A stretch of DNA of 64,000 nt from Anaeromyxobacter sp. (lineage in GTDB: Bacteria; Myxococcota; Myxococcia; Myxococcales; Anaeromyxobacteraceae), in contig JASGJN010000013.1 of assembly GCA_049840735.1 (NCBI GenBank), positions 64,001 to 128,000 on the forward strand, written 5' to 3'. The notes under the pieces are model-generated. The model did no database searches. It worked only from the letters and a program-made list of their open reading frames with translations, and had not been told where the DNA came from. Both the position numbers and the translations under genes were made by a program. This document shows positions 1-14,512 of the stretch, in pieces (position 1 is the stretch's first letter; the number at the start of each line of letters is the position of its first letter).

Positions 1-157
1 CGTAGCGATCCGGGTGGTAGACGCGCGACTCGCGGTAGTAGGCCGCCTTGATCTCGGCCGGCGAGGCGGTCTGCGGCAGCTTGAGCACGCCGAAGTAGTC
101 GAGCTGGTCGAGGGCCTCGGCCAGCGTCTCGACCTCCAGGAGGAAGCCGGCGTCCAT
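1..157 (-). CDS. J-domain (DnaJ-like) protein, N-terminal part; runs off the window edge
   Basis: Manual translation from ATG 157: [52 protein letters not shown]. It has the DY-x-VL and HPD J-domain motifs and starts 3 nt after the Hsp70 stop. Confidence 0.85.
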
Positions 158-160
158 GGG

Positions 161-1775
<1,615 letters not shown>

Positions 1776-1945: not shown

Positions 1946-2791
1946 ATGGGTGCGGTCGCCGCGATCCTCCAGAGCGATGCGAGCCTGATGCGCTGCCAGC
2001 TGGCGCGCCTCCGGCCCTACGTGTCGCTCCAGCCGGGCGGAGAGGCCCCGCCCGACGCGTACGGGTTCGGCTACTACCAGGCCGGGAACGTGCTGGTCGG
2101 CAAGCGCCCCGCCGGCGCCGCCGCGCAGCTCTCGCTGCCCGACCTGGTGGGGCGGGTGGACACCGAGGCGCTGCTGGTCCACGCCCGGCGGGCCACGGTG
2201 GGCAAGCCCAAGGACGAGAACACCCACCCGTTCCGGTTCCGCCGCTGGCTCTTCGCCCACGACGGCCAGGTGGAGGGCTGGGACCGGGTGAAGCCGCGCC
2301 TGCTCGACGCCCTGCCGGACTTCCTGCGCCGCAACGTGCAGGGCGAGACCGACTCCGAGCACGTCTTCATGTGGTTCCTCAAGCTGCTCAAGGACGACGG
2401 GGCCCTGGACGACCTCGACCTGGACGCCCAGGCGGCCGGGCGGGCGCTGGGGCGGACCGTGCGGCAGCTGGAGGCCTGGGCGCGCGACGTCGGCGAGGGA
2501 CGCCCCTCGCGCCTGACCTTCGTCGCCACCAACGGGCGAATCCTGGTGGCCACCCGCCGGGGCGGCCCGCTCCACTACGCGCTCCTGGAGGGCATCGTCC
2601 CCTGCGAGCTGGACGAGCTGGCGGTGGACACCCCGGAGAGCGACCCGCGCGTGCGGCCGCACCGGCGCGTGAAGGCCGTCTGCTTCGCCTCCCGCCTCTC
2701 CGCCCCGGACGGCTTCATCGAGGTGCCGGAGGGGAGCGTGGTCTCCGTCGGGCGGACGCTGCAGGTGGCGGTGAACGGGCTGCCGGGGTAG
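1946..2791 (+). CDS. Class II glutamine amidotransferase (EgtC/YafJ-like) fold protein lacking the N-terminal Cys
   Basis: Motifs HARRAT, ENTHPF, WLFAHDG and GETDSE. The N-terminus is MGAVAA rather than MC. Confidence 0.8.
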   Translation: MGAVAAILQSDASLMRCQLARLRPYVSLQPGGEAPPDAYGFGYYQAGNVLVGKRPAGAAAQLSLPDLVGRVDTEALLVHARRATVGKPKDENTHPFRFRRWLFAHDGQVEGWDRVKPRLLDALPDFLRRNVQGETDSEHVFMWFLKLLKDDGALDDLDLDAQAAGRALGRTVRQLEAWARDVGEGRPSRLTFVATNGRILVATRRGGPLHYALLEGIVPCELDELAVDTPESDPRVRPHRRVKAVCFASRLSAPDGFIEVPEGSVVSVGRTLQVAVNGLPG

Positions 2792-2800
2792 CCCCCCCGC

Positions 2801-3850
2801 TCAGACCAGCGACCACGGCCGCGGCACGAACCGCTGCTCCCAGGCGGCGAGCGCGAAGCGGTCGGTCATGCCGGAGAGCCAGTCGGTCACCGCCCGCTCC
2901 AGCGGCTCGCCTGGGCGCGGCGCGACGACCTGCTCCCGCGCCAGGCGCGCCGGATCCTCGAGGCACCAGCCCCACAGGTCCCGCAGGATGCGCTGCGCCT
3001 TGCGGAACTCGTCGTGCACCACCGGGTTCTCGTAGACGCGGGCGTACAGGAAGTCGCGCAGCGCCAGCAGCGCCTCGTGCACGTCGGGTGACATCTCGAT
3101 GTGCCCGCCGCCGTCCACGTCGGAGCGGCGGATCACGTCGTGCACCAGCCGCGCGAAGCGCTCGGAGCGGCCCCCGCCCAGCACCTCGCGGATGCGCGCC
3201 GGCAGGTCGGCCTCGGCGAAGAGCCCGGCCCGCAGCGCGTCGTCCAGGTCGTGGTTCACGTAGGCCACGATGTCGGCGATGCGGACGATCTCGGCCTCGA
3301 GCGTGAGCGACTTCTCTCCCGAGCCCTTGAGCAGCACGTTCCCGCGCCCCTTGGAGTGGCGGAGGATGCCGTCGCGGACCTCGGCGGTCAGGTTGAGCCC
3401 GCGCCCGTCCTTCTCCAGCACCTCCACCACGCGCACCGACTGGACCACGTGGTGGAAGCCGCCCGGCACCACCTCGTTGAGCAGCCGCTCGCCGGCGTGG
3501 CCGAAGGGCGTGTGGCCCAGGTCGTGCCCCATCACCATGGCCTCGACCAGCATCTCGTTGAGCCGCAGCGCCCGCGCGATGGAGCGGCCCACCTGCGCCA
3601 CCTCGAGCGTGTGGGTCAGGCGGGTCCGGTAGTGATCGCCCATGGGCGCCAGGAAGACCTGGGTCTTCCCGGCCAGCCGGCGAAAGGCCTTGCAGTGGAC
3701 GATGCGGTCGCGGTCCCGCTGGAAGGCCGGGCGCTCGTCGTCCGGCGCCTCCGGCCGCTCGCGGCCCCGGCTCCGCGCCGAGCGCGCGGCGCGCGGGTGC
3801 AGCGTCCGCTCCTCCAGGTCCTCCAGCATCTCGCGGATCGAGCCGGGCAT
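2801..3850 (-). CDS. dgt: Deoxyguanosinetriphosphate triphosphohydrolase (HD family)
   Basis: Motifs FQRDRDRI, FRRLAGKTQVF, RTRLTHTLEV, HDLGHTPFGHAGE, ADIVAYVNHD and SGMTD. Confidence 0.92.
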   Translation of the reverse strand: MPGSIREMLEDLEERTLHPRAARSARSRGRERPEAPDDERPAFQRDRDRIVHCKAFRRLAGKTQVFLAPMGDHYRTRLTHTLEVAQVGRSIARALRLNEMLVEAMVMGHDLGHTPFGHAGERLLNEVVPGGFHHVVQSVRVVEVLEKDGRGLNLTAEVRDGILRHSKGRGNVLLKGSGEKSLTLEAEIVRIADIVAYVNHDLDDALRAGLFAEADLPARIREVLGGGRSERFARLVHDVIRRSDVDGGGHIEMSPDVHEALLALRDFLYARVYENPVVHDEFRKAQRILRDLWGWCLEDPARLAREQVVAPRPGEPLERAVTDWLSGMTDRFALAAWEQRFVPRPWSLV

Positions 3851-3944: not shown

Positions 3945-4730
3945 TCACCGCGGCCCGTAGAAGCTCGCCTCCAGCGTGGTCAGGAACAGGTTCGACAGGG
4001 CGTGCACCACCACCGGCGCCACCAGCCCCCCGGTGCGCTCGCGCAGCCAGCCGAACAGCAACCCTGGGAAGAACGTGGCCAGCCGCCAGGGCTGCAGCAC
4101 CACCAGGTGCCCGGCGGCGAAGAGCAGCTGCGTCCAGAGGAAGCCGGCCCCGAGCCGGGCGCCCAGCACGGTCACGCCGCGCCCGGGCGCGCCCCGGGCC
4201 CAGCTGGTCTGGAGGAACCCCCGGTAGAAGAGCTCCTCCGGCAGCGCCACCACCAGCAGCTGCACCAGCGCCAGCGTGGCGAACCCCTCCGGCAGCCGGG
4301 GCGCGAGGTGCGGGGTGCCGACGTACGGCGCCAGCTGGTGGGCCAGCCCCGCCGGCAGGTTCGGCAGCGCCGCCGCGTAGGCGGCGAAGAGGCCGGCGAA
4401 GGGGGGGAGGATCAAGGCGCACACCAGCAGCCCCTGGCGCACGCCGCGGCCCAGCGCCCGCCAGGTGTCGGGATCGCGCGCCGAGAGGTGCGGCAGGCCG
4501 TACGCGTCCCAGCCCTCCCCCCTGGCCCGCAGCTTCGCGTCGGGCAGCCAGATGAAGAGGAAGGCCGCCACGCCGGCCAGGTTCGCCGCCAGGAGCCCGG
4601 TGGGCTCCAGGAGCGAGAGGCCGCGCGCCAGCGCCAGGCCGCCCACCGCCAGGCACCAGGTGGCCACCAGCGCCCGCCGCGGCAGGGGCGCGGGTGTGGC
4701 GTCGTCGGTCGCAGGGGGCTGCGCGCTCAC
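3945..4730 (-). CDS. CPBP/Abi-family glutamic intramembrane protease, myxosortase-like
   Basis: Multi-TM protein with EELFYRG, FAAGH and HALSN CPBP motifs plus WRLATFFPGLLFGWLRERTG. Divergent from a MYXO-CTERM-bearing gene. Confidence 0.85.
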   Translation of the reverse strand: MSAQPPATDDATPAPLPRRALVATWCLAVGGLALARGLSLLEPTGLLAANLAGVAAFLFIWLPDAKLRARGEGWDAYGLPHLSARDPDTWRALGRGVRQGLLVCALILPPFAGLFAAYAAALPNLPAGLAHQLAPYVGTPHLAPRLPEGFATLALVQLLVVALPEELFYRGFLQTSWARGAPGRGVTVLGARLGAGFLWTQLLFAAGHLVVLQPWRLATFFPGLLFGWLRERTGGLVAPVVVHALSNLFLTTLEASFYGPR

Positions 4731-4875
4731 GCGCCGGGGATCTCACGGCCCGGGGAGCCGGTCAACGCTCCTCCCCCTCGAATGTGGGCAGCTTCCCGAC
4801 CTGTGCCGCCAGGCCGCGCGTCCCTCGAACCGGCGACGGGGCGCGTGTTACTCTCCACGCCCAGGAGTGAAAACG

Positions 4876-7800
4876 ATGACCTCTCGCCGCCCGTTCCCCA
4901 GGCGCCGGCTCCTCGCCGGCCTCGTCCCGCTGCTCCTCGTCGCCGCCGCGCTGCCCTTGATGGCGCCGACCTGCGGCGGAGGAGCGGAGGGCTGGCGCAC
5001 CTTCCAGCGGAACTCGCTCATCATCCCCATGGACCGCTGCTGGCAGAACCAGACCGACGCGGTCACGCCGGGCACGGTGGCGAACTGCAGCTCGCCGCAG
5101 ACCGGCGACGTGATCCGCGCCTACGGCCTGGTCTACCAGCTCATCCGCAACAACGTGGCGGTGTACTGGGTCATCAGCCCGGACAAGGCCGCGCTCACCG
5201 GCCAGGACCTGGCCGTCCAGTACTCGGGCGGCTTCCCGGTCCTCAAGTACGACTGGACGGCGGGCGCGCCGGGCGCGGGGCTCGGCGCCGATCACACCAT
5301 CCGCTACCTGGGCGGCCCCTTCATCGTGGACGGGTCCGACTACGACAAGGCGGTGGCGGTGCTGGCCAGGTACCGCACCAGCTTCTCGGCCGTGAACGTG
5401 CACGTGTCCAACGTGGCCTTCCGCGGCTACGTGAAGAAGACCATGGCCGGCGGCTGGAACGCCGGCGGCACCGTGCCGCCCAAGCTGGCGCTGCTCGACA
5501 TCGGCAGCGGCAACATCTCCAGCCTGAGCCCGCTCGCCATCCGCGACCCCAAGAACGCCGAGCCGGTGATCTCCGGCTACCTGAACCGCGCCGGCATCGG
5601 CTCCGGGACCGCGGCCGGCACCGCCACCGGCACGCACGGCGAGATCTACGACCGGCTCACCATCGACGACTTCCAGCCGGCCTCCGGCTCCACCGACCCC
5701 ACCACCAGCCGCCTCTTCACCAACGGCTACCAGATCCTCTGGGTGCCGCACTGGGTCGCGCCGGGCTCCTGCTCCAACTACAGCTCCACCACCAACTGCG
5801 CCAACAGCAAGTACAGCGACGCGCGCATCGCGCAGACGCTCCAGACCATCGGCGCCTTCGTGGCCTCCGGCAAGGACGTGTTCGCCGAGTGCGCCGGCAT
5901 GGGCAGCTTCGAGGGCGCGTTCAAGCGCGGGAACGCCGGCACCTCGGACAGCGCCTACACCATCGACTACCAGAAGGGCGATCCGAGCACGCGGTTCCAG
6001 ACGCTCAACGGGCTCCGCTACAACGAGCTGCCCAACAACCCGTTCCCCGCCCCCACCTTCCCCGGCAACTTCAGCTCCCCGCTGCTGCAGCTGGGCGACT
6101 TCCCGTTCTCGCCCTACACCGGCGCGATCGAGGACTACCGGCCCCAGAACCCCACCTCCGGCGGCGGCTACCACGCCGACGTGACGCGGCTCATCCGCGG
6201 CACCGCCGGCGGCGCCAACACCTCCTACGGCGACCCCTACGACGCCTGGGACTACTTCACCATCCGTCCCTCCGCCTCCGGCCGCGGCACCATCGTGTAC
6301 CTGGCCGGCCACAGCTACTCCGGCGTCCAGGGCACGTTCCAGGTGGCCGGCTCGCGCCTGGTGCTCAACACCCTCTTCAACCTGGGCGCGGGCTGCACCG
6401 ACAGCGGCGTGACCTGCGACACCGGCAAGCTGGGCGTCTGCGCCAAGGGCACCCTGGCCTGCTCCCAGAGCGGCGCGTCGGTGTGCACCCAGTCCGTCTT
6501 CCCCAGCGCCGAGACCTGCAACGGCCTGGACGACGACTGCGACGGCCTGGTGGACGAGGACCTCGAGGTGGGCTGCTACGACGGCCCGGCCGCCACCCGG
6601 AACGTGGGGCTCTGCCGGCAGGGCGTGAGCGCCTGCGAGCGGAAGACCGACGGCAGCTACGGCATGAGCGCCTGCGTCGGCCAGGTGCTGCCGGCGGACG
6701 AGGTCTGCAACGGCCTCGACGACAACTGCAACGCCACCGTGGACGAGGCGCTGCAGCAGGCCTGCTACTTCGGCCCGCTCTCCTCGCTCGACGACCAGGG
6801 CCGGCCGCAGGGCGCCTGCAAGGCGGGCACCCAGACCTGCAGCCAGGGCACCTGGGGGGAGTGCGCGGTCTGCCCGGCCGGCATCCAGCCCTCCGACCCG
6901 GGCTACGCCGCCTGCCAAATCCTGCCGGCGGGCGAGACCTGCCAGGACACCACCGACGTCGACTGCAACGGCTACGTGAAGGAGCTGGCCGGCGAGTGCG
7001 GCAGCTGCACGCCGGGCGCCACGGCCACCTGCTACACCGGTCCGGGCGGCACGGTGAACGTGGGCCTCTGCCACGCCGGCACCCAGACCTGCAGCTCCAG
7101 CGGGAGCTGGGGCCCCTGCGTCGGTGAGGTCAAGCCGGTCTCCGAGAATCTGCACCGCCACCGGCGGCACGCCGCGCGACGAGGACTGCGACCACGAGCT
7201 CGACGAGGGCTGCGCCTGCCGCGACGGCGACACCGAGTCCTGCTACACCGGCCCGACCGGCACCGAGGGCAACGGCATCTGCGTCGCCGGCCACCGCACC
7301 TGCGCCAGCGGCCAGTTCGGCGAGGCCTGCGAGGAGCAGGTGCTGCCCATCCCCGAGACCTGCAACGGCAAGGACGACGACTGCGACGGCGCCGTCGACG
7401 ACGGCGCCACCTGCGCCTCGGGCTTCTCCTGCGAGCACGGCGTCTGCGTGCCCAGCTCCTGCGGCGTGGAGAACGCCTGCCCGGAGGGCTACGACTGCAA
7501 GGTCCCGTCCGGCGCCAGCGCCGCGACCTGCGTGCTCGGCAGCTGCGGCGGCACCACCTGCGCCGACGGCAAGGAGTGCCAGTACGGCAGCTGCGTGGAC
7601 CCCTGCGACAACGTCACCTGCGGCGCCGGCGCCACCTGCGCCTCCGGCGCCTGCGTGGGCGGCAGCTGCTACTTCGAGGGCTGCCCGGCCGGCCAGCTGT
7701 GCCGCAACGGCAACTGCGCCGCCGACGCGTGCGACGGCGTGACCTGCCCCTACGGCACCTTCTGCCGCGAGGGCGACTGCGTGCAGGCCTGCACCTTCGT

Positions 7801-10187
7801 CAGCTGCCGCAGCGGCGAGAAGTGCGGCACGGACGGCTTCTGCGAGTCCGACCCGTGCGCCAACCGGACCTGCGGCCCGACCCAGACCTGCGTGGCCGGG
7901 ACGTGCGTCGAGGACCCGTGCCTGGGCCTCGGCTGCGGCCAGGGCCAGGTCTGCAAGGCCGGCGTGTGCGTTGACGACGCCTGCAACGGCATCTCCTGCC
8001 CGGCCGGCCAGTGCCTCCAGGGCCAGTGCTACCCGGTGGGCAACCCGCAGGACGTGACCACGCCCACGAAGGAGACCAGCAGCGGCGGCTGCGGCTGCGG
8101 GACCGGCGCCGCCAGCCCGCTCACCGCCCTGCTGTTCCTGCTGGCGGTGCCGCTGGCCCGGCGCCGCCGCGGCGGCCAGGGCACCGGCCGCTGGGCCGCC
8201 CTGGCCCTGCTGCTGGTCGCGGCGGGCGCCAGCGGCTGCTCCTCCAAGAGCGACGGCGTCCCGGACCTGGCCCGCTGCGCCGGAGACCGGCGGGACGGTG
8301 TGCGAGGGCGAGAACCGCTGCATCGACACCTGGACCGACCCGGCCCACTGCGGCTACTGCGGCAACGCCTGCGGGGCCGGCAACGTCTGCGTGGACAAGA
8401 CCTGCGGCCCGGCCAGCGGCGTGGCCCCGTTCATCACCGGCCTCTCGCCCGGCTCCGGCCCCAAGGGCGGCTCGGCCCCCGTCACCGTCCAGCTCAACGG
8501 CCAGCGCTTCGCCCAGGGCGCCACCGTGCGCAGCGTCACCCCGGCCGGCACCCACACCTACGAGACCACCTGGGTGTCGGCCTCCTCGCTGCACGTGGAC
8601 CTCGACCTGTCCGCGTCGCCCGCCACCATCAGCTACCTGCGGGTGGTGAACCCGGACAAGGTGATCTCCAACCCGGTCCGCTTCGAGATCACCACCCCCA
8701 CGCCGGCCATCACCGGGCTCTCCCCGGCCGGCGCCGTCACCGGCCAGGTGACCCAGTTCACCGTGGCCGGCACCGGCTTCCTGGCCGAGAGCGAGTGCCA
8801 CTACTCGGGGCAGGGCAACGCCCAGGCGCTCCTCACGGTCGTGAACGGCGACGGCACGCTGACCTGCACCTTCGACGCGACCTCCCTGCCGCCCGCCACC
8901 GGCTTCCAGCTCTGGGTGGAGAACCCGGCCCTGCCCACCTCGGTCGCCTCCCAGCCCCGCTCCTTCAACGTGATCAGCGCGACGCCGGTGGTGAACAGCG
9001 TCAGCCCGAGCCAGGCGGCGTCCAACGAGGCGGTGGCCTTCACCGTGGACGGCGACGGCTTCGACGTCACCAGCCAGGTGCTCTTCGACGGCACGCCCCT
9101 CACCGCCACCACCTTCGTCTCGGCGCGCCAGCTCTACATCCCGCAGTACCTGCCGGCGGCCTGCTCCAGCGGCACCTGCCCGCACGTCGTCCGCGTCCGG
9201 AACGGCACCGCCGGCACGCCCTCCGAGACCTCCGCGACGTTCTACGTCGGCGCGCAGCCGCCGCAAATCACCGGCCTCTCGCCCGGCTCCGCCTATCAAG
9301 GCGCCACCGACGTGGTCCTCACCTTCACCGGCAGCGGCTTCCCGACCGGCACCCAGCTGCAGCTGCAGCCGCCCGGCGGCGCCTTCGGGACGCCCATCAG
9401 CGCCACCGTCAACGGCACCGGCACCCAGGTCACCGCCGTCGTGCCCTCGTTCGTCGACAGCCCCGTGGGCACGGCGCCGGAGGGCACCTGGCTGGTCCGG
9501 CTGGTCTACCCGGGCCCCATCAACTCCGCCTCCTACCCGTTCCGCCTGCTCTCGAACCTGGCCACGCTGGTGAGCTCCAACGTGCGCGGCGAGATGCAGG
9601 GCAAGCAGGTGACGGTCACCCTCTCCGCGGTGAACCTGCGCCCCTCGGCGGCGGCCACCGTCGACCGGGACATCCGGGTGGTGTTCGCCGGCCAGGACCG
9701 GACGCCCAGCGCCGTCAACATCACGCAGGCCTCCTCCGGCACCGGGACCGTCACGGTCCAGCTCAGCACGGTGGACCTCGACACCGGCACCTACACGGTG
9801 CAGGTGAGGAACCCGAGCGCCCAGCCCTCCAACGCGCTCTCCTTCAACGTCACCCCCGGCCAGCCCACGGTGGTCACCGTCACCCCGTCCAGCGCGGTCC
9901 AGAGCGACACCCCCACGCTGATCGTGCTGACCGGGACCAACTTCGCGAAGCCGGACGCCAGCGGCAACGGCGGCTCCATCGTGCACGTGGCCTCGACGGC
10001 GCTGGGCATCCTCGACTTCGCGCTGCCGGCCTCGGCCACCACGGTGGTCAACTCGAAGCGGCTCGAGGTGCGGTTCGACACCCGCACCGGCGTGCCGGGC
10101 ACCTACGACGTCTCGGTCTGGAACCCGGGCGGCCCGACCCCGCCCCAGAAGTCCAACTCGCTCACCGGCGCCTTCACGATCCAGTAG
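4876..10187 (+). CDS. Large Cys-rich surface protein (~1769 aa after removing extra bases at ~7147 and ~8282): signal peptide, globular domain, MopE-like repeats, EGF-like Cys repeats, internal MYXO-CTERM-like anchor, second lipoprotein signal, Cys-rich module, IPT/TIG-like repeats
   Basis: RBS AGGAG at 4863-4867 and ATG 4876. Repeats ETCNGLDDDCDGLVDE, EVCNGLDDNCN and ETCNGKDDDCDG. SSGGCGC-TM-RRRR at ~8078-8170, ASG|C lipobox at ~8228-8239, TDPAHCGYCGNAC, and repeated P-x-ITGLSP / PVVNSVSP / PTVVTVTP units. ORF-track pieces 4465, 7124 and 8298 join in register. Confidence 0.75.
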
Positions 10188-10267: not shown

Positions 10268-10645
10268 TCAGCCCTTCTGCAGGGCCTTCCCGACCAGCTG
10301 GACCGCCAGCGAGGGATCGAACGGCTTGCGCATGATCTCGTCGGCGCCGAGCTTCCGGTAGACGTCCACCTCGCGCTCGCTGATCCGCGAGGACATGAGG
10401 ACCAGGAAGATCTTCCGCCAGTGGGGGTGCGCCTTGACCAGGCGGCACACGTCGGCGCCGTTCAGCTTGGGCATGTAGATGTCCAGCATCACCGCGTCCG
10501 GGCTGGCGGTGGACATCTTCCGGAAGACCTCCTCGCCGTCGCAGGCGCTGGAGACCTCGTAGCCTTCGTCCTCGAAGGCGGAGGTGAGGGCGTCCACCAT
10601 GGAGGGCGAGTCGTCGACGATGAGGACGGTCGGCCGGCGGGTCAT
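10268..10645 (-). CDS. Single-domain response regulator (CheY-like receiver)
   Basis: Motifs VLIVDDS, MLDIYMPKLNG and KPFD. TATAAC lies 9 nt upstream of the ATG. Confidence 0.88.
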   Translation of the reverse strand: MTRRPTVLIVDDSPSMVDALTSAFEDEGYEVSSACDGEEVFRKMSTASPDAVMLDIYMPKLNGADVCRLVKAHPHWRKIFLVLMSSRISEREVDVYRKLGADEIMRKPFDPSLAVQLVGKALQKG

Positions 10646-10716
10646 CGGCCTCGGGTTATACCTCAGTTCGCGCGGGACCGCCGTCCCCGGACACCTGTGG
10701 TAGGTTCCGCCCCGCC

Positions 10717-12132
10717 ATGCCAAAAGTCCGCGTCCGCTTCGCACCCTCTCCCACCGGCTACCTCCACATCGGTGGCGCACGCACAGCCCTCTTCAACTGG
10801 CTGTGGGCCCGGCGCACCGGCGGCGTCTTCGTGCTCCGCATCGAGGACACCGACCGCGAGCGCTCGACGCAGGCCGCCGTGGACGCCATCCTCGACGCCA
10901 TGAAGTGGCTGGGGCTGGACTGGGACGAGGGCCCCGAGGTGGGGGGGCCGCACCCGCCCTACTTCCAGACGCAGCGGCTCGAGCTCTACAAGGCGCACGC
11001 CGAGAAGCTCATCGCCGAGGGGAAGGCCTTCGCCTGCTACTGCACGCGCGAGGCGCTGGACGTGCAGCGCAAGGCCGCCGAGGCCGAGAAGCGCCAGTTC
11101 CGCTACCCCGGCACCTGCCGCCACAAGCCCTACGATCCCTCGAAGCCGCACGTGATCCGCTTCCGCGTGCCGGAGACCGGCGAGACCACCTTCGTGGACC
11201 TGGTGAAGGGGGCCATCTCCACCCCGCACGACACGCTGCAGGACGAGGTCATCCTGCGCGGCGACGGCGTGCCGCTCTACAACTTCGGCGCGGTGGTGGA
11301 CGACATCACCATGGAGATCAACCTGGTCGGGCGCGGCGACGACCACGTCAACAACACCGCCCGGCAGATCCTGATGTACCAGGCGCTGGGCTACCCGGTC
11401 CCGACCTTCGCCCACTTCCCCATGATCCTGGGCGCGGACAAGACCCGCCTCTCCAAGCGCCACGGCGCCACCAGCGTCACCTCCTACCGCGACATGGGCT
11501 TCCTGCCCCAGGCGGTGGTGAACTACCTGGTGCGGCTGGGCTGGAGCCACGGGGACCAGGAGATCTTCTCGCTCGAGGAGCTGGTGCAGCTCTTCGACAT
11601 GAAGGACGTGGGCGCCACCGCCGGCGTGTTCAACCCGGACAAGATGGCCTGGGTGAACCACGAGTGGCTGAAGAAGCTCCCGGACGAGGAGCTGGCCCGG
11701 CGCGCGCTGCCGCACTTCCAGGCCGCCGGCCTGCCGGCGCAGGACGACCAGAAGCTGCGCCACGTCTGCGCGGTGGCCCGCGAGCGCGCCCGCACCTTCG
11801 GCGAGTACGTGGCCCAGTTCCGCTACTTCTACGCGCCCATCGCGCTCGACCCCAAGGCCAAGGACAAGTTCCTGACCGCCGACGCGAAGCCCATCCTCCA
11901 AGGGCTCCGGGAGGCCATCGCCGGGATGGCGGCGCTGGAGACGGCCGCGCTGGAGAAGCTCTTCCAGGACGCCGCCGCGGCGCGCGGCGTGGGGCTGGGC
12001 AAGATCGCCCAGCCGGCGCGCGTGGCCCTCACCGGCGGCACCGCCTCCCCGGGCATGTACGACGTCATCCAAATCCTGGGGAAGGACGAGACGCTGAAGC
12101 GGCTCGACGACGCCCTGGCGCTGATCGGGTAG
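10717..12132 (+). CDS. gltX: Glutamate--tRNA ligase
   Basis: Motifs RFAPSPTGYLHIGGARTALFN, LRIEDTD and RLSKRHGA. Confidence 0.97.
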   Translation: MPKVRVRFAPSPTGYLHIGGARTALFNWLWARRTGGVFVLRIEDTDRERSTQAAVDAILDAMKWLGLDWDEGPEVGGPHPPYFQTQRLELYKAHAEKLIAEGKAFACYCTREALDVQRKAAEAEKRQFRYPGTCRHKPYDPSKPHVIRFRVPETGETTFVDLVKGAISTPHDTLQDEVILRGDGVPLYNFGAVVDDITMEINLVGRGDDHVNNTARQILMYQALGYPVPTFAHFPMILGADKTRLSKRHGATSVTSYRDMGFLPQAVVNYLVRLGWSHGDQEIFSLEELVQLFDMKDVGATAGVFNPDKMAWVNHEWLKKLPDEELARRALPHFQAAGLPAQDDQKLRHVCAVARERARTFGEYVAQFRYFYAPIALDPKAKDKFLTADAKPILQGLREAIAGMAALETAALEKLFQDAAAARGVGLGKIAQPARVALTGGTASPGMYDVIQILGKDETLKRLDDALALIG

Positions 12133-12199
12133 CCCTCTTTCCCAGCAAGAGCGAGAGGTTGCGTCGCAGGCCCCGGTGGAGTACCACCAGGGCTCGACT

Positions 12200-14512
12200 A
12201 TGAGCGACGCCCCTCGCCCCCAGAACTTCCTCGCCGACATCATCGAGGACGACCTCGCGCACGGCCGCACCGGCGGCCGGGTGGTCACCCGCTTCCCGCC
12301 GGAGCCCAACGGGTTCCTGCACATCGGCCACGCCAAGTCAATCCTGCTCAACTTCGGCCTGTCCCGGGCCTACGGCGGCCGGACGCACCTGCGCTTCGAC
12401 GACACGAACCCCGTGACGGAGGAAACCGAGTACGTCGAGGCCATCCAGGCCGACGTGAAGTGGCTGGGCGGCGAGTGGGGCCAGCACCTCTACTACGCCT
12501 CCGACTTCTTCGACCGCATGTACGCGTGCGCCGAGCGGCTGATCCGCGAGGGCAAGGCGTACGTGGACAGCCAGGCCCAGGACCAGATCCGCGAGCAGCG
12601 CGGCTCGTTCGACCGGCCCGGCACGAACAGCCCGTACCGCGACCGGCCGGCGGAGGAGAGCCTGGACCTCTTCCGGCGCATGCGCGCCGGCGAGTTCACC
12701 GACGGCACCTGCGTGCTGCGCGCCAGGATCGACATGGGCCACCCCAACGTGCTCATGCGCGACCCGCTGCTCTACCGGATCCGCCACGCCCACCACCACC
12801 GGACCGGCGACAAGTGGTGCATCTACCCGATGTACGACTACGCCCACCCGCTGGAGGACGCGTTCGAGGGGGTGACCCACTCCATCTGCACGCTGGAGTT
12901 CGAGTCCAACCGCGAGCTGTACGACTGGGTGCTCGACGCCCTCGGCCCCTGGGATCCCCGCCCGCGCCAGTACGAGTTCGCGCGGCTGGCCCTGGGCTAC
13001 ACGGTGATGTCGAAGCGCAAGCTGCTCCAGCTGGTGAACGAGAAGCGCGTCTCCGGCTGGGACGACCCGCGCATGCCCACCGTGGCCGGCATGCGCCGGC
13101 GCGGCGTCACCCCCGAGGCGCTGCGCGACTTCGCCGAGCTGATCGGCGTGGCCAAGAACAACTCGCTGGTGGACATCGGCAAGTTCGAGTTCGCCATCCG
13201 CAGCGACCTGGAGGAGCGCTCGCCGCGCGCGCTGGCGGTGCAGAACCCGCTGCCCATCACCCTCGAGAACTGGCCGGCGGGCAGGATCGAGGAGCTGGAC
13301 CTGCCCTGGTGGCCGGGCGAGCCGGCGCGCGGCGGCAGCCGCAAGGTGCCGTTCGGCGCCGACCTGCTCATCGAGCGCGAGGACTTCACCGAGGACCCGC
13401 CCAAGGACTGGAAGCGGCTGGCGCCCGGGCGCGAGGTGCGCCTGGTGGGCGGCTACGTGATCCGCTGCCTGGACGTGGTCCGCGGCGAGAGCGGCGAGGT
13501 GAAGGCGCTCCGCTGCAGCTACGACCCCGAGTCGCTCGCCGGCGCGGGCGCCACCCGCCGCGTGGCCGGCACCCTCCACTGGGTCCACGCCACGAAGTCG
13601 GTGGCGGCCACGGTCCGGCTCTACGACCGGCTCTTCGGGGTGGAGCAGCCGGACGCCGAGCCCAACTTCCTCGACGTCCTCAACCCGCACTCGCTGCAGG
13701 TCGCGAGGGGCGCCCGGACCGAGCCGGCGCTGCGCCAGGCCGAGCCGGGCAGCCGCTACCAGTTCCTGCGGCTGGGCTACTTCTTCGCCGACCCGGTGGA
13801 GTCCAGGCCGGGAGCGCCGGCCTGGAACCGGACCATCACGCTCAAGGACACCTGGGCGCAGAGGGCGGACAAGCCGGCCGGGGAGACCCGCAAGCCCAAG
13901 GCCAGGAAGGAGCCGGCCGAGGGGGCGGCGCCGCGCAAGGGCAAGGGCGAGGCCCGGGCCGAGGCGCACGCGGCCGATCCCGCCCGCGCGCAGCGCTTCG
14001 CCCAGCTGGTGGCGCAGAAGCTCTCCGAGGACGAGGCCGACATCCTGGCCGCCGACGCCGACACGGCCGCCTGGTTCCAGGCCGCGGTGGGCGCCGGCGC
14101 GAAGCCGGCCACCGCCTCGCGCTGGCTGGTCAACGAGCTGCTGGGGCTGGCCGACGGCGCCCCGCTGGCCTCGCTGCCCCTGCCCGCGCCCGCCTTCGGC
14201 CGCTTCGCCGCGCTGGTGGACGCGGGCCGGCTGGCCACCGCCGCCGCCAAGGCGCTGCTGGCCGACCTGGTCGAGCAGGGCGGCGAGCCCGAGGCGCGCA
14301 TGAAGGCGCTGGGGCTGGAGAAGGTGGAGGACCGCGGGGCGGTGGAGACCGCCGTCGGCAAGGTGCTCGCCGCCCACGCCGCCGAGGTGGCGCGCTACCG
14401 CGCCGGCGAGAAGAAGCTGCTGGGCGTGCTGCTGGGCGCCGCCATGCGCGAGACGCAGGGCGCGGCCGACCCGGCGCTGGTCCGCCAGGTGCTGACGCAG
14501 CGGCTGGGATAG
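12200..14512 (+). CDS. glnS: Glutamine--tRNA ligase with C-terminal YqeY/GatB-like domain
   Basis: Motifs TRFPPEPNGFLHIGHAK, LRFDDTNP, YPMYD and MSKRKL. The C-terminal extension ends YRAGEKKLLGVLLGAAMRETQGAADP. Confidence 0.95.
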   Translation: MSDAPRPQNFLADIIEDDLAHGRTGGRVVTRFPPEPNGFLHIGHAKSILLNFGLSRAYGGRTHLRFDDTNPVTEETEYVEAIQADVKWLGGEWGQHLYYASDFFDRMYACAERLIREGKAYVDSQAQDQIREQRGSFDRPGTNSPYRDRPAEESLDLFRRMRAGEFTDGTCVLRARIDMGHPNVLMRDPLLYRIRHAHHHRTGDKWCIYPMYDYAHPLEDAFEGVTHSICTLEFESNRELYDWVLDALGPWDPRPRQYEFARLALGYTVMSKRKLLQLVNEKRVSGWDDPRMPTVAGMRRRGVTPEALRDFAELIGVAKNNSLVDIGKFEFAIRSDLEERSPRALAVQNPLPITLENWPAGRIEELDLPWWPGEPARGGSRKVPFGADLLIEREDFTEDPPKDWKRLAPGREVRLVGGYVIRCLDVVRGESGEVKALRCSYDPESLAGAGATRRVAGTLHWVHATKSVAATVRLYDRLFGVEQPDAEPNFLDVLNPHSLQVARGARTEPALRQAEPGSRYQFLRLGYFFADPVESRPGAPAWNRTITLKDTWAQRADKPAGETRKPKARKEPAEGAAPRKGKGEARAEAHAADPARAQRFAQLVAQKLSEDEADILAADADTAAWFQAAVGAGAKPATASRWLVNELLGLADGAPLASLPLPAPAFGRFAALVDAGRLATAAAKALLADLVEQGGEPEARMKALGLEKVEDRGAVETAVGKVLAAHAAEVARYRAGEKKLLGVLLGAAMRETQGAADPALVRQVLTQRLG

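Follow-up and report, generated by a model that had tools for sequence, protein, structure and literature searches.

The window analysed here is a stretch of 64,000 nucleotides from Anaeromyxobacter sp. (contig JASGJN010000013.1, positions 64,001 to 128,000), and the subject of this work is a gene on its plus strand for a predicted precursor protein of 1,769 amino acids. The precursor carries a MYXO-CTERM sorting tag in its interior, and the tag runs directly into a second hydrophobic segment that ends in a lipobox. The layout is real and conserved, and it represents a variant of MYXO-CTERM sorting, one that would need lipoprotein processing at an internal site. The features of the locus, in coordinates of the window, are:

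3945-4730, minus strand: mrtX, gene of a myxosortase (CPBP intramembrane protease for MYXO-CTERM tags; NF040593), divergent from the precursor gene
4863-4867, plus strand: AGGAG ribosome-binding site, 8 nt 5' of the ATG (from the sequence)
4876-10187, plus strand: precursor gene, 1,769 amino acids, with two +1 frameshifts (~7147, ~8282) in the assembly
4876-4974, plus strand: N-terminal export signal ending in the invariant Cys33
4972-6396, plus strand: head domain, predicted class I glutamine-amidotransferase-like (ThuA/GATase1) fold (AlphaFold2, VIA, Foldseek)
6397-8080, plus strand: Cys-rich stalk of MopE-like repeats (PF11617), short Cys-rich repeats and a T/S-rich linker
8081-8170, plus strand: internal MYXO-CTERM tag (TIGR03901) with GGCGC (8084-8098), transmembrane segment (8114-8158) and Arg run
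8159-8191, plus strand: basic loop, predicted cytoplasmic, comprising the Arg tail of the tag and the n-region of the second signal
8192-8239, plus strand: second hydrophobic segment (8192-8236) and lipobox A-S-G-C (Cys at 8237-8239), predicted lipoprotein signal for signal peptidase II (SPII)
8237-10187, plus strand: predicted lipoprotein half with a short tether, an eight-Cys STIG1/MXAN_6577-like cluster (to ~8411) and about six immunoglobulin (Ig)-like IPT/TIG repeats (8424-10184)

Reading frame and conservation of the junction

Three reading frames are used in succession along the precursor gene. Its 5,312 bases minus two give 1,770 codons, which correspond to 1,769 amino acids and a stop, in agreement with the length given in the preliminary description of this DNA. 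The third-position GC content is near 1.0 across the gene and changes frame only at ~7147 and ~8282; therefore, both frameshifts lie outside the junction, as had been proposed. The junction frame has a third-position GC content of 1.00 at 8090-8270 and contains no stop from 7148 to beyond 8284, so that one open frame crosses the junction with no correction of the sequence. Both +1 shifts occur at short base runs and are likely assembly errors. Genes spread over several frames made up two of the 16 checked in the assembly, the second being a dnaK/Hsp70-like gene at the start of the window (1-1775, minus strand), whose frameshift is probably another assembly indel. Because of such frameshifts the read-through needed confirmation from outside, and in the window strain it rests on orthologous sequences. 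The promoter and terminator search of the locus found no match to a sigma-70 promoter or a terminator.

Searching GTDB contigs for the head domain identified 27 loci. In 18 of them a single open reading frame (ORF) of 1,740-1,876 amino acids extends across both halves; these are all of the loci that cover the two halves uninterrupted by assembly breaks, and each of them keeps the fusion, including that of the isolate Anaeromyxobacter sp. PSR-1. In six other loci the contig ends inside the junction or ahead of it, two more have several frameshifts each (L026, with the junction in frame, and L027, which is unscoreable), and the ORF of L011 stops at 1,018 amino acids, about 100 bases from the contig end and upstream of the tag. 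Three genomes that are 100% complete and assembled as a single contig (G006, G014 and G021) also have an open junction, and the gene is present in cultured Anaeromyxobacter species.

A search of proteins of 980-3,119 amino acids gave 133 matches among 7,992 candidates scored, of which 120 were listed. The succession of tag, basic loop, second hydrophobic segment and Cys is present in 115 of the 120 homologues listed; 113 of these were parsed by script, and form the basis of the junction statistics below, and two by eye. The remaining five are the frameshifted call of the window itself, the product of L011, two proteins whose tails look frameshifted and a PilY1-type protein. Not one of the 120 matches listed ends at the tag, and a first half of 1,100 amino acids falls within the searched lengths. 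Ten of the listed homologues form a shorter subfamily (1,243-1,338 amino acids) with the same joint, and at ~30% identity the fusion persists in two further families, represented by four genomes and by one genome (L048-L050, L165, L170).

Split orthologues were looked for, and none was found at the genome loci fetched (the 27 head-domain loci and those from outside the family, from the short subfamily and from head-less genomes). A search for a separate second half among proteins of 352-1,120 amino acids gave 12 matches, the sole close one being a partial record. The expectation that orthologues keep the fusion was thus borne out. The conservation also bears on the possibility that an assembly error deleted a stop between two genes. 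Frameshifts in the precursor gene and in one more of the 16 genes checked would fit such an error, but independent assemblies, isolates included, show the same in-frame joint at 18 genome loci and in 115 proteins. An artefact is ruled out by these orthologues for practical purposes, and its probability is negligible.

Among the representatives listed, P0251 and P0253, which are more distant and have another architecture, carry a terminal or near-terminal tag.

Tag, second signal and their proposed processing

TIGR03901, whose cut-off is 20, recognizes the tag named in the preliminary description at 8081-8170, scoring 20.0 bits against the protein and 24.1 bits against the genome. The Cys signature, helix and Arg cluster of MYXO-CTERM are found together at a marginal score, the precursor has a hydrophobic N-terminus that can serve as an export signal, and the genome encodes a myxosortase. 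The tag is not at the C-terminus, where MYXO-CTERM is expected, but is followed by ~650 residues. In all 113 parsed junctions the distance from Cys to the basic residues of the tag is 19-23 amino acids, and the basic loop has 4-38 amino acids with a net charge of +4 to +11.

The product of the divergent gene matches the MrtX model NF040593 with 211.6 bits (cut-off 180). The mrtX gene is at the same position in 26 of the 27 loci, the 27th being too short. In five loci of the short subfamily the precursor gene is inverted and still abuts mrtX, and it does not adjoin mrtX in the two outside families. All 10 head-less genomes checked lack both halves next to mrtX, one of these loci being cut by the contig end, and no split pair was found there. 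The genes lspA, lgt and gspD score above their cut-offs in the host genome.

The second signal was compared with a control set from the host genome, consisting of 180 N-terminal signals (h-region and Cys) and 116 internal decoys (transmembrane segment and Cys), with positions -3 to -1 left unconstrained. Gly or Ala occupies position -1 in 109 of the 113 junctions, and the other four are three mis-picks of the script and one Ser; the fraction is 0.96 in junctions, 0.89 in host N-terminal signals and 0.30 in internal decoys. In a profile trained on host signals versus decoys, 97% of the junctions fall on the lipoprotein side, and the lipobox of the junction scores like those of the host's own N-terminal lipoproteins. 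The number of Cys residues from the lipobox Cys (exclusive) to the first Ig repeat is even in 105 of 109 scored proteins; therefore, the lipobox Cys is the unpaired one. These results uphold the claim that the second hydrophobic segment ends in a lipobox. It has the basic n-region, h-region, small residues and Cys of an SPII substrate, at a place that is not the N-terminus of its own reading frame. The lipobox is given as L-[A/S/T]-[G/A]-C (PMC3222651; published work is cited throughout from the parts of its text that were available), and the canonical Leu at -3 occurs in only 19 of 113 junctions, Ala or Gly being more frequent there.

The preliminary description had offered, as an alternative, an in-frame GTG start at ~8147. 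The second half would then have a start of its own, like the downstream member of an overlapping gene pair, and the full-length chain would be incidental. The GTG at 8147 would give a normal-looking signal in the window, and one homologue (P0159) has a Met in its loop. However, just 5 of the 20 genomic junctions contain an in-frame NTG, its offset takes three different values, and it is missing in L003, the close pair-mate of L006. No NTG in any frame is preceded by a ribosome-binding motif in the 20 junctions, whereas the true start has AGGAG. A Met before the end of the loop occurs in 3 of 113 junctions and is located in the first helix, and, there being no stop codon, translation would yield the full-length chain in any case. 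The start at 8147 was rejected on the differing offsets and the missing ribosome-binding sites; the comparison indicates that the junction has no conserved internal start, and separate translation of the second half is very improbable.

In the reading we prefer, with a probability of about 70%, the junction would form a membrane hairpin that is cut by MrtX behind the lipidated Cys of the tag and by Lgt/LspA at the lipobox, giving two separately anchored envelope proteins. The N-terminal signal would export the head domain and the Cys-rich stalk via Sec. The tag helix would stop the transfer, the Arg loop would be cytoplasmic, and the second helix would restart export of the Ig-repeat half; we infer this hairpin topology from hydrophobicity and from the loop charge. 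The Cys of the GCGC motif would be lipidated and the neighbouring MrtX would cut behind it, as expected because MrtX acts on TraA, leaving a first protein with a C-terminal anchor. By analogy with TraA, this cleavage would be Cys-dependent and the surface display would depend on the type II secretion system. Lgt would lipidate the lipobox Cys and LspA would cut in front of it, so that the second protein receives an N-terminal anchor. A hairpin peptide of roughly 45-50 residues would be left over after both cuts; if MrtX acts first, the remainder would be a lipoprotein with a long two-helix leader. The 1:1 ratio and the surface location of both halves are likewise deductions from the sequence.

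The hairpin precursor had already been put forward in the preliminary description. It is favoured by the fused orthologues, by the lipoprotein-like lipobox, by the failure of the internal-start alternative and by the occurrence of mrtX, lgt and lspA in the genome. It is possible, but unlikely, that only one cut is made. Either MrtX would free the first half while the second stays tethered by an uncut hairpin, lipidated or not, or LspA would free the second half while the first is held by two helices. LspA normally acts on N-terminal signals, and the second h-region is longer than those of host signals. MrtX normally acts on tags with a short free tail, and TraA is partly surface-located without MrtX (PMC11980579). 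Two observations speak against a single cut: none of the 113 parsed junctions has lost either Cys motif, even as their loops range from 4 to 38 amino acids, and the loci with a beta-barrel cargo swap the lipobox for a site of the signal peptidase I (SPI) type, which suggests that the second signal is selected for being cut. Quite improbable is a chain that is never cut and persists in the inner membrane, held by two helices and with its large domains both on the periplasmic side, its motifs being relics of an old gene fusion. Such a topology is valid for a membrane protein, but relic motifs should decay, whereas both Cys residues and the small -1 residue persist at ~30% overall identity. An unpaired lipobox Cys and a place next to mrtX that outlasted an inversion of the gene also tell against relics.

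Several observations weigh against two cleavages and two surface products. We know of no precedent for LspA acting on an internal signal. The TIGR03901 score of the window tag is barely at the cut-off, which not every orthologue reaches, and the tag of Anaeromyxobacter sp. PSR-1 misses E 0.01 in the TIGR03901 scan. Junctions have a longer distance between the last basic residue and the Cys (median 17, compared with 13 in host signals) and more Gly at -3 (29% vs 4%). The tag helix contains a conserved Pro, unlike the MYXO-CTERM helices of the model paper (10.1101/2023.06.07.544157). Lys occupies position +2 in 47 of 113 junctions, with Ser in the window, and Lys at +2 has been linked to inner-membrane retention in Myxococcus xanthus (PMC3222651); by that analogy the second half may be retained in the inner membrane, at odds with a surface location for both halves. 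Of 66 family genomes searched, 39 encode the head domain; the other 27, some of them incomplete, lack the gene. The homologues are kin, so that the counts overstate their independence.

Among 150 listed representatives, one homologue (P0160, 963 amino acids) ends at the tag, which likewise speaks against the fusion; either the fusion is not strictly required or the record is erroneous. A quick tree was built from 43 head domains, four rows having been dropped by the parser. With the PilY1-type rows outside, P0160 nests among fused forms with a support of 100, so that the fusion looks ancestral and P0160 would be a later split or an error. The DNA behind P0160 was not found among 79 metagenome loci, none of which matched its head or the Ig half, and two further family searches for P0160-like loci gave only fused forms.

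The mrtX region shows some further variation. In L171-L175 the inverted gene lies between the response regulator and mrtX, head-to-tail with mrtX, and the two may share a transcript. Loci from genomes without the fused gene (L199, L201, L202, L204) encode another protein with a terminal MYXO-CTERM tag, possibly a matrixin-like protease as judged by eye, 1-2 kb from mrtX. Conserved neighbours in the window (1946-3850 and 10268-14512) are a class II glutamine amidotransferase, dGTPase, response regulator, gltX and glnS.

The two halves of the chain

The first half had been described as a MopE-like/EGF-like Cys-rich protein. This holds for the stalk, with its PF11617 match and Cys-rich repeats, but the half begins with a 475-residue glutamine-amidotransferase-like domain. 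This head (residues 33-507) has no match in Pfam or NCBIfam. Its AlphaFold2 model has a mean predicted local distance difference test (pLDDT) score of 91.4 and aligns to 4jqs with a VIA Z-score of 13.5 and a root-mean-square deviation of 3.8 over 230 residues. The head matches 54 chains at Z >= 8, the top rows being nearly all GATase1/ThuA-like, and Foldseek agrees on this class with weak E-values. The ESM Atlas gave no match of 0.9 or more. By its model, the head has a flavodoxin-like GATase1 fold. Cys339 (5890-5892), positioned after a strand, and His479 (6310-6312) are invariant, while the closest folds include non-catalytic domains. The modelled head likely binds or hydrolyses a substrate outside the cell.

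Cys33, at the end of the export signal, is present in 117 of 117 scored homologues. In 144 of 149 proteins Cys33 and the equivalent of Cys507 are either both present (126) or both absent (18), and five are discordant. This pattern makes it likely that Cys33 forms a disulfide with Cys507 rather than carrying a lipid. A third lipid anchor at Cys33 was considered and rejected, as the residue comes and goes with the Cys507 equivalent and no such motif occurs among the 180 host signals.

The head is also found elsewhere. In many distant homologues it precedes a PilY1-type propeller, where a pilus-tip adhesion domain would sit. Such PilY1-type proteins with a GATase1-like N-terminal head and conserved Cys and His motifs include L178:2890-7209 (minus strand), P0124, P0154, P0161, P0169, P0201, P0210 and others. 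A GATase-like domain is not named in the available text of the 2026 PilY1 classification survey (PMC13190605). In three genomes of another family the head closes a stand-alone lipoprotein, after Ig and STIG1-like domains. These lipoproteins of ~700 amino acids (L166-L169, P0152), with Ig (ASH) and STIG1-like parts and the GATase-like domain at the C-terminus, look like reshuffled parts of both halves of the precursor; genome G043 has two copies.

The second half was described as an IPT/TIG-repeat protein, and this was confirmed by matches to NF058597 (five stretches), NF041328 and PF01833. Its residues 135-634 give an all-beta model with a pLDDT of 94, and the only matches of a PDB sequence search were Ig-like ones to this half.

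It is likely, on the models, that the two products act as a pair in which the Ig stalk props or presents the GATase-like head. The predicted complex of head and Ig half scored 0.44, versus 0.00 for the best of three controls, with a partner pLDDT of at least 87, and the runs agree in at least 0% of contacts; in the range up to 0.60, where this score lies, the mark was passed by 18 of 157 solved complexes and also by the only two mismatches, of 215, that passed. The prediction hints at a complex of the two. The stalks contain 72-89 Cys residues in 93 long-form homologues. A matching of stalk length between the halves was considered and is not demonstrated: the Spearman coefficient of 0.41 for 103 proteins, with five partial and five unparsed rows left out, is driven by the short subfamily and drops to 0.20 (p 0.056) within the 93 long forms.

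Internal tags elsewhere and comparison with known systems

A profile of the junction has matches in most of the 251 genomes of the class searched, largely to ordinary tags. Twenty full-span or near-full-span matches were picked by hand, as a sample rather than a census, and 15 were parsed: one belongs to the precursor family, four to a second family, and ten have the tag followed by a Cys-less signal. The unpublished genome G118 underlies none of the statements made here. The second family (L180-L183, four genomes of family f6) combines a MopE-like stalk, an internal tag, a lipobox and a C-terminal vWA domain. An internal tag followed by an SPI-type signal occurs in at least 16 other loci and in a gene of the host genome. 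In L185, L188, L190, L195 and L196 the cargo behind the SPI-type signal is unlike an OmpA-type barrel. The host gene (G000 C26:470465-475675, plus strand) is MXAN_5598-like, with an N-terminal lipoprotein-like signal, an internal MYXO-CTERM tag, an SPI-type second signal and a barrel/OmpA-like C-terminus, and thus has three signals in one chain. A PEP-CTERM-like tag (G000 C11:131116-131178, plus strand) stands among the weak MYXO-CTERM matches of the same genome.

On balance we lean slightly towards a broader proposal. Myxococcota would use a portable hairpin cassette, MYXO-CTERM tag plus second signal, to make true polyproteins; MrtX and LspA would cut on either side, LspA at a signal that lies over 1,000 residues from the start of the chain, and the C- and N-terminally lipidated products, made in a 1:1 ratio, would reassemble as a stalked receptor/enzyme pair. 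A swap of the second signal, lipoprotein versus SPI type, would set the anchoring of the second cargo.

Signal peptidase II and Lgt are taught as enzymes of N-terminal signals, and C-terminal sorting tags as the ends of proteins. If the hairpin processing is true, both rules bend in one molecule, and bacteria can obtain two envelope proteins with different anchors from one gene by simple and reusable means, in the manner of viral polyproteins at the endoplasmic reticulum. Lipoprotein predictors, which consider only the N-terminus, would miss a class of myxobacterial lipoproteins. The back-to-back Cys sites would also provide a handle on which enzyme lipidates MYXO-CTERM. Among other systems, the Bradyrhizobium FbcH precursor is reportedly cut at an internal signal, and an ArtA substrate of H. 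volcanii with a non-terminal tag is said to be cut at the tag, in both cases by another protease and with no lipobox.

The preliminary description knew of no earlier account of the architecture, which stands in part. An internal MYXO-CTERM tag is in print for MXAN_5598 of M. xanthus, whose first part is proposed to be cut and anchored (PMC11980579). A tag followed by a lipoprotein signal was not found in the literature searched, with most subscription papers outside its scope, and as far as the searches reach this version is undescribed. MXAN_5598 resembles the window precursor in that one ORF joins an adhesin-like region, an internal tag and a second exported protein. However, its second cargo is a beta-barrel/OmpA domain, whereas that of the window consists of Ig/TIG repeats. 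A second signal or lipobox is not mentioned in the main-text parts or supplement text terms of PMC11980579 consulted, and the MXAN_5598-type loci found here show an SPI-type signal without Cys; by contrast, the lipobox of the window precursor would require a second lipidation and LspA.

TraA sorting (PMC11980579; 10.1101/2023.06.07.544157) shares with the precursor the GCGC motif, the helix, the Arg cluster, a Cys-rich stalk before the tag and MrtX in the genome, and MrtX cuts TraA even in E. coli (PMC11980579). True MYXO-CTERM tags lie close to the C-terminus (10.1101/2023.06.07.544157), unlike that of the window. The available text of the Haft preprint (10.1101/2023.06.07.544157) does not contain the words 'internal', 'fusion' or 'polyprotein'. 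Anaeromyxobacter ORFs divergent from mrtX are reported to carry a MYXO-CTERM motif (PMC11980579), and these are very probably the precursor gene family; in the parts available, neither source calls the Anaeromyxobacter tag internal or followed by a lipobox.

The second signal resembles substrates of the Lgt/LspA pathway in its basic n-region, h-region, small residues, Cys and polar tether, and matches the relaxed lipoboxes of the host; it differs in beginning ~1,100 residues into the chain, without a start codon. Finally, the TraA-TraB pair (PMC6372800) also combines a variable head on a Cys-rich MYXO-CTERM stalk with a second envelope protein encoded directly downstream. Anaeromyxobacter is reported to lack traAB (PMC6372800), and homology between the heads is not indicated. 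TraA and TraB are products of separate genes, with a PA14-like head and a barrel partner, whereas the window precursor joins its two halves in one chain.

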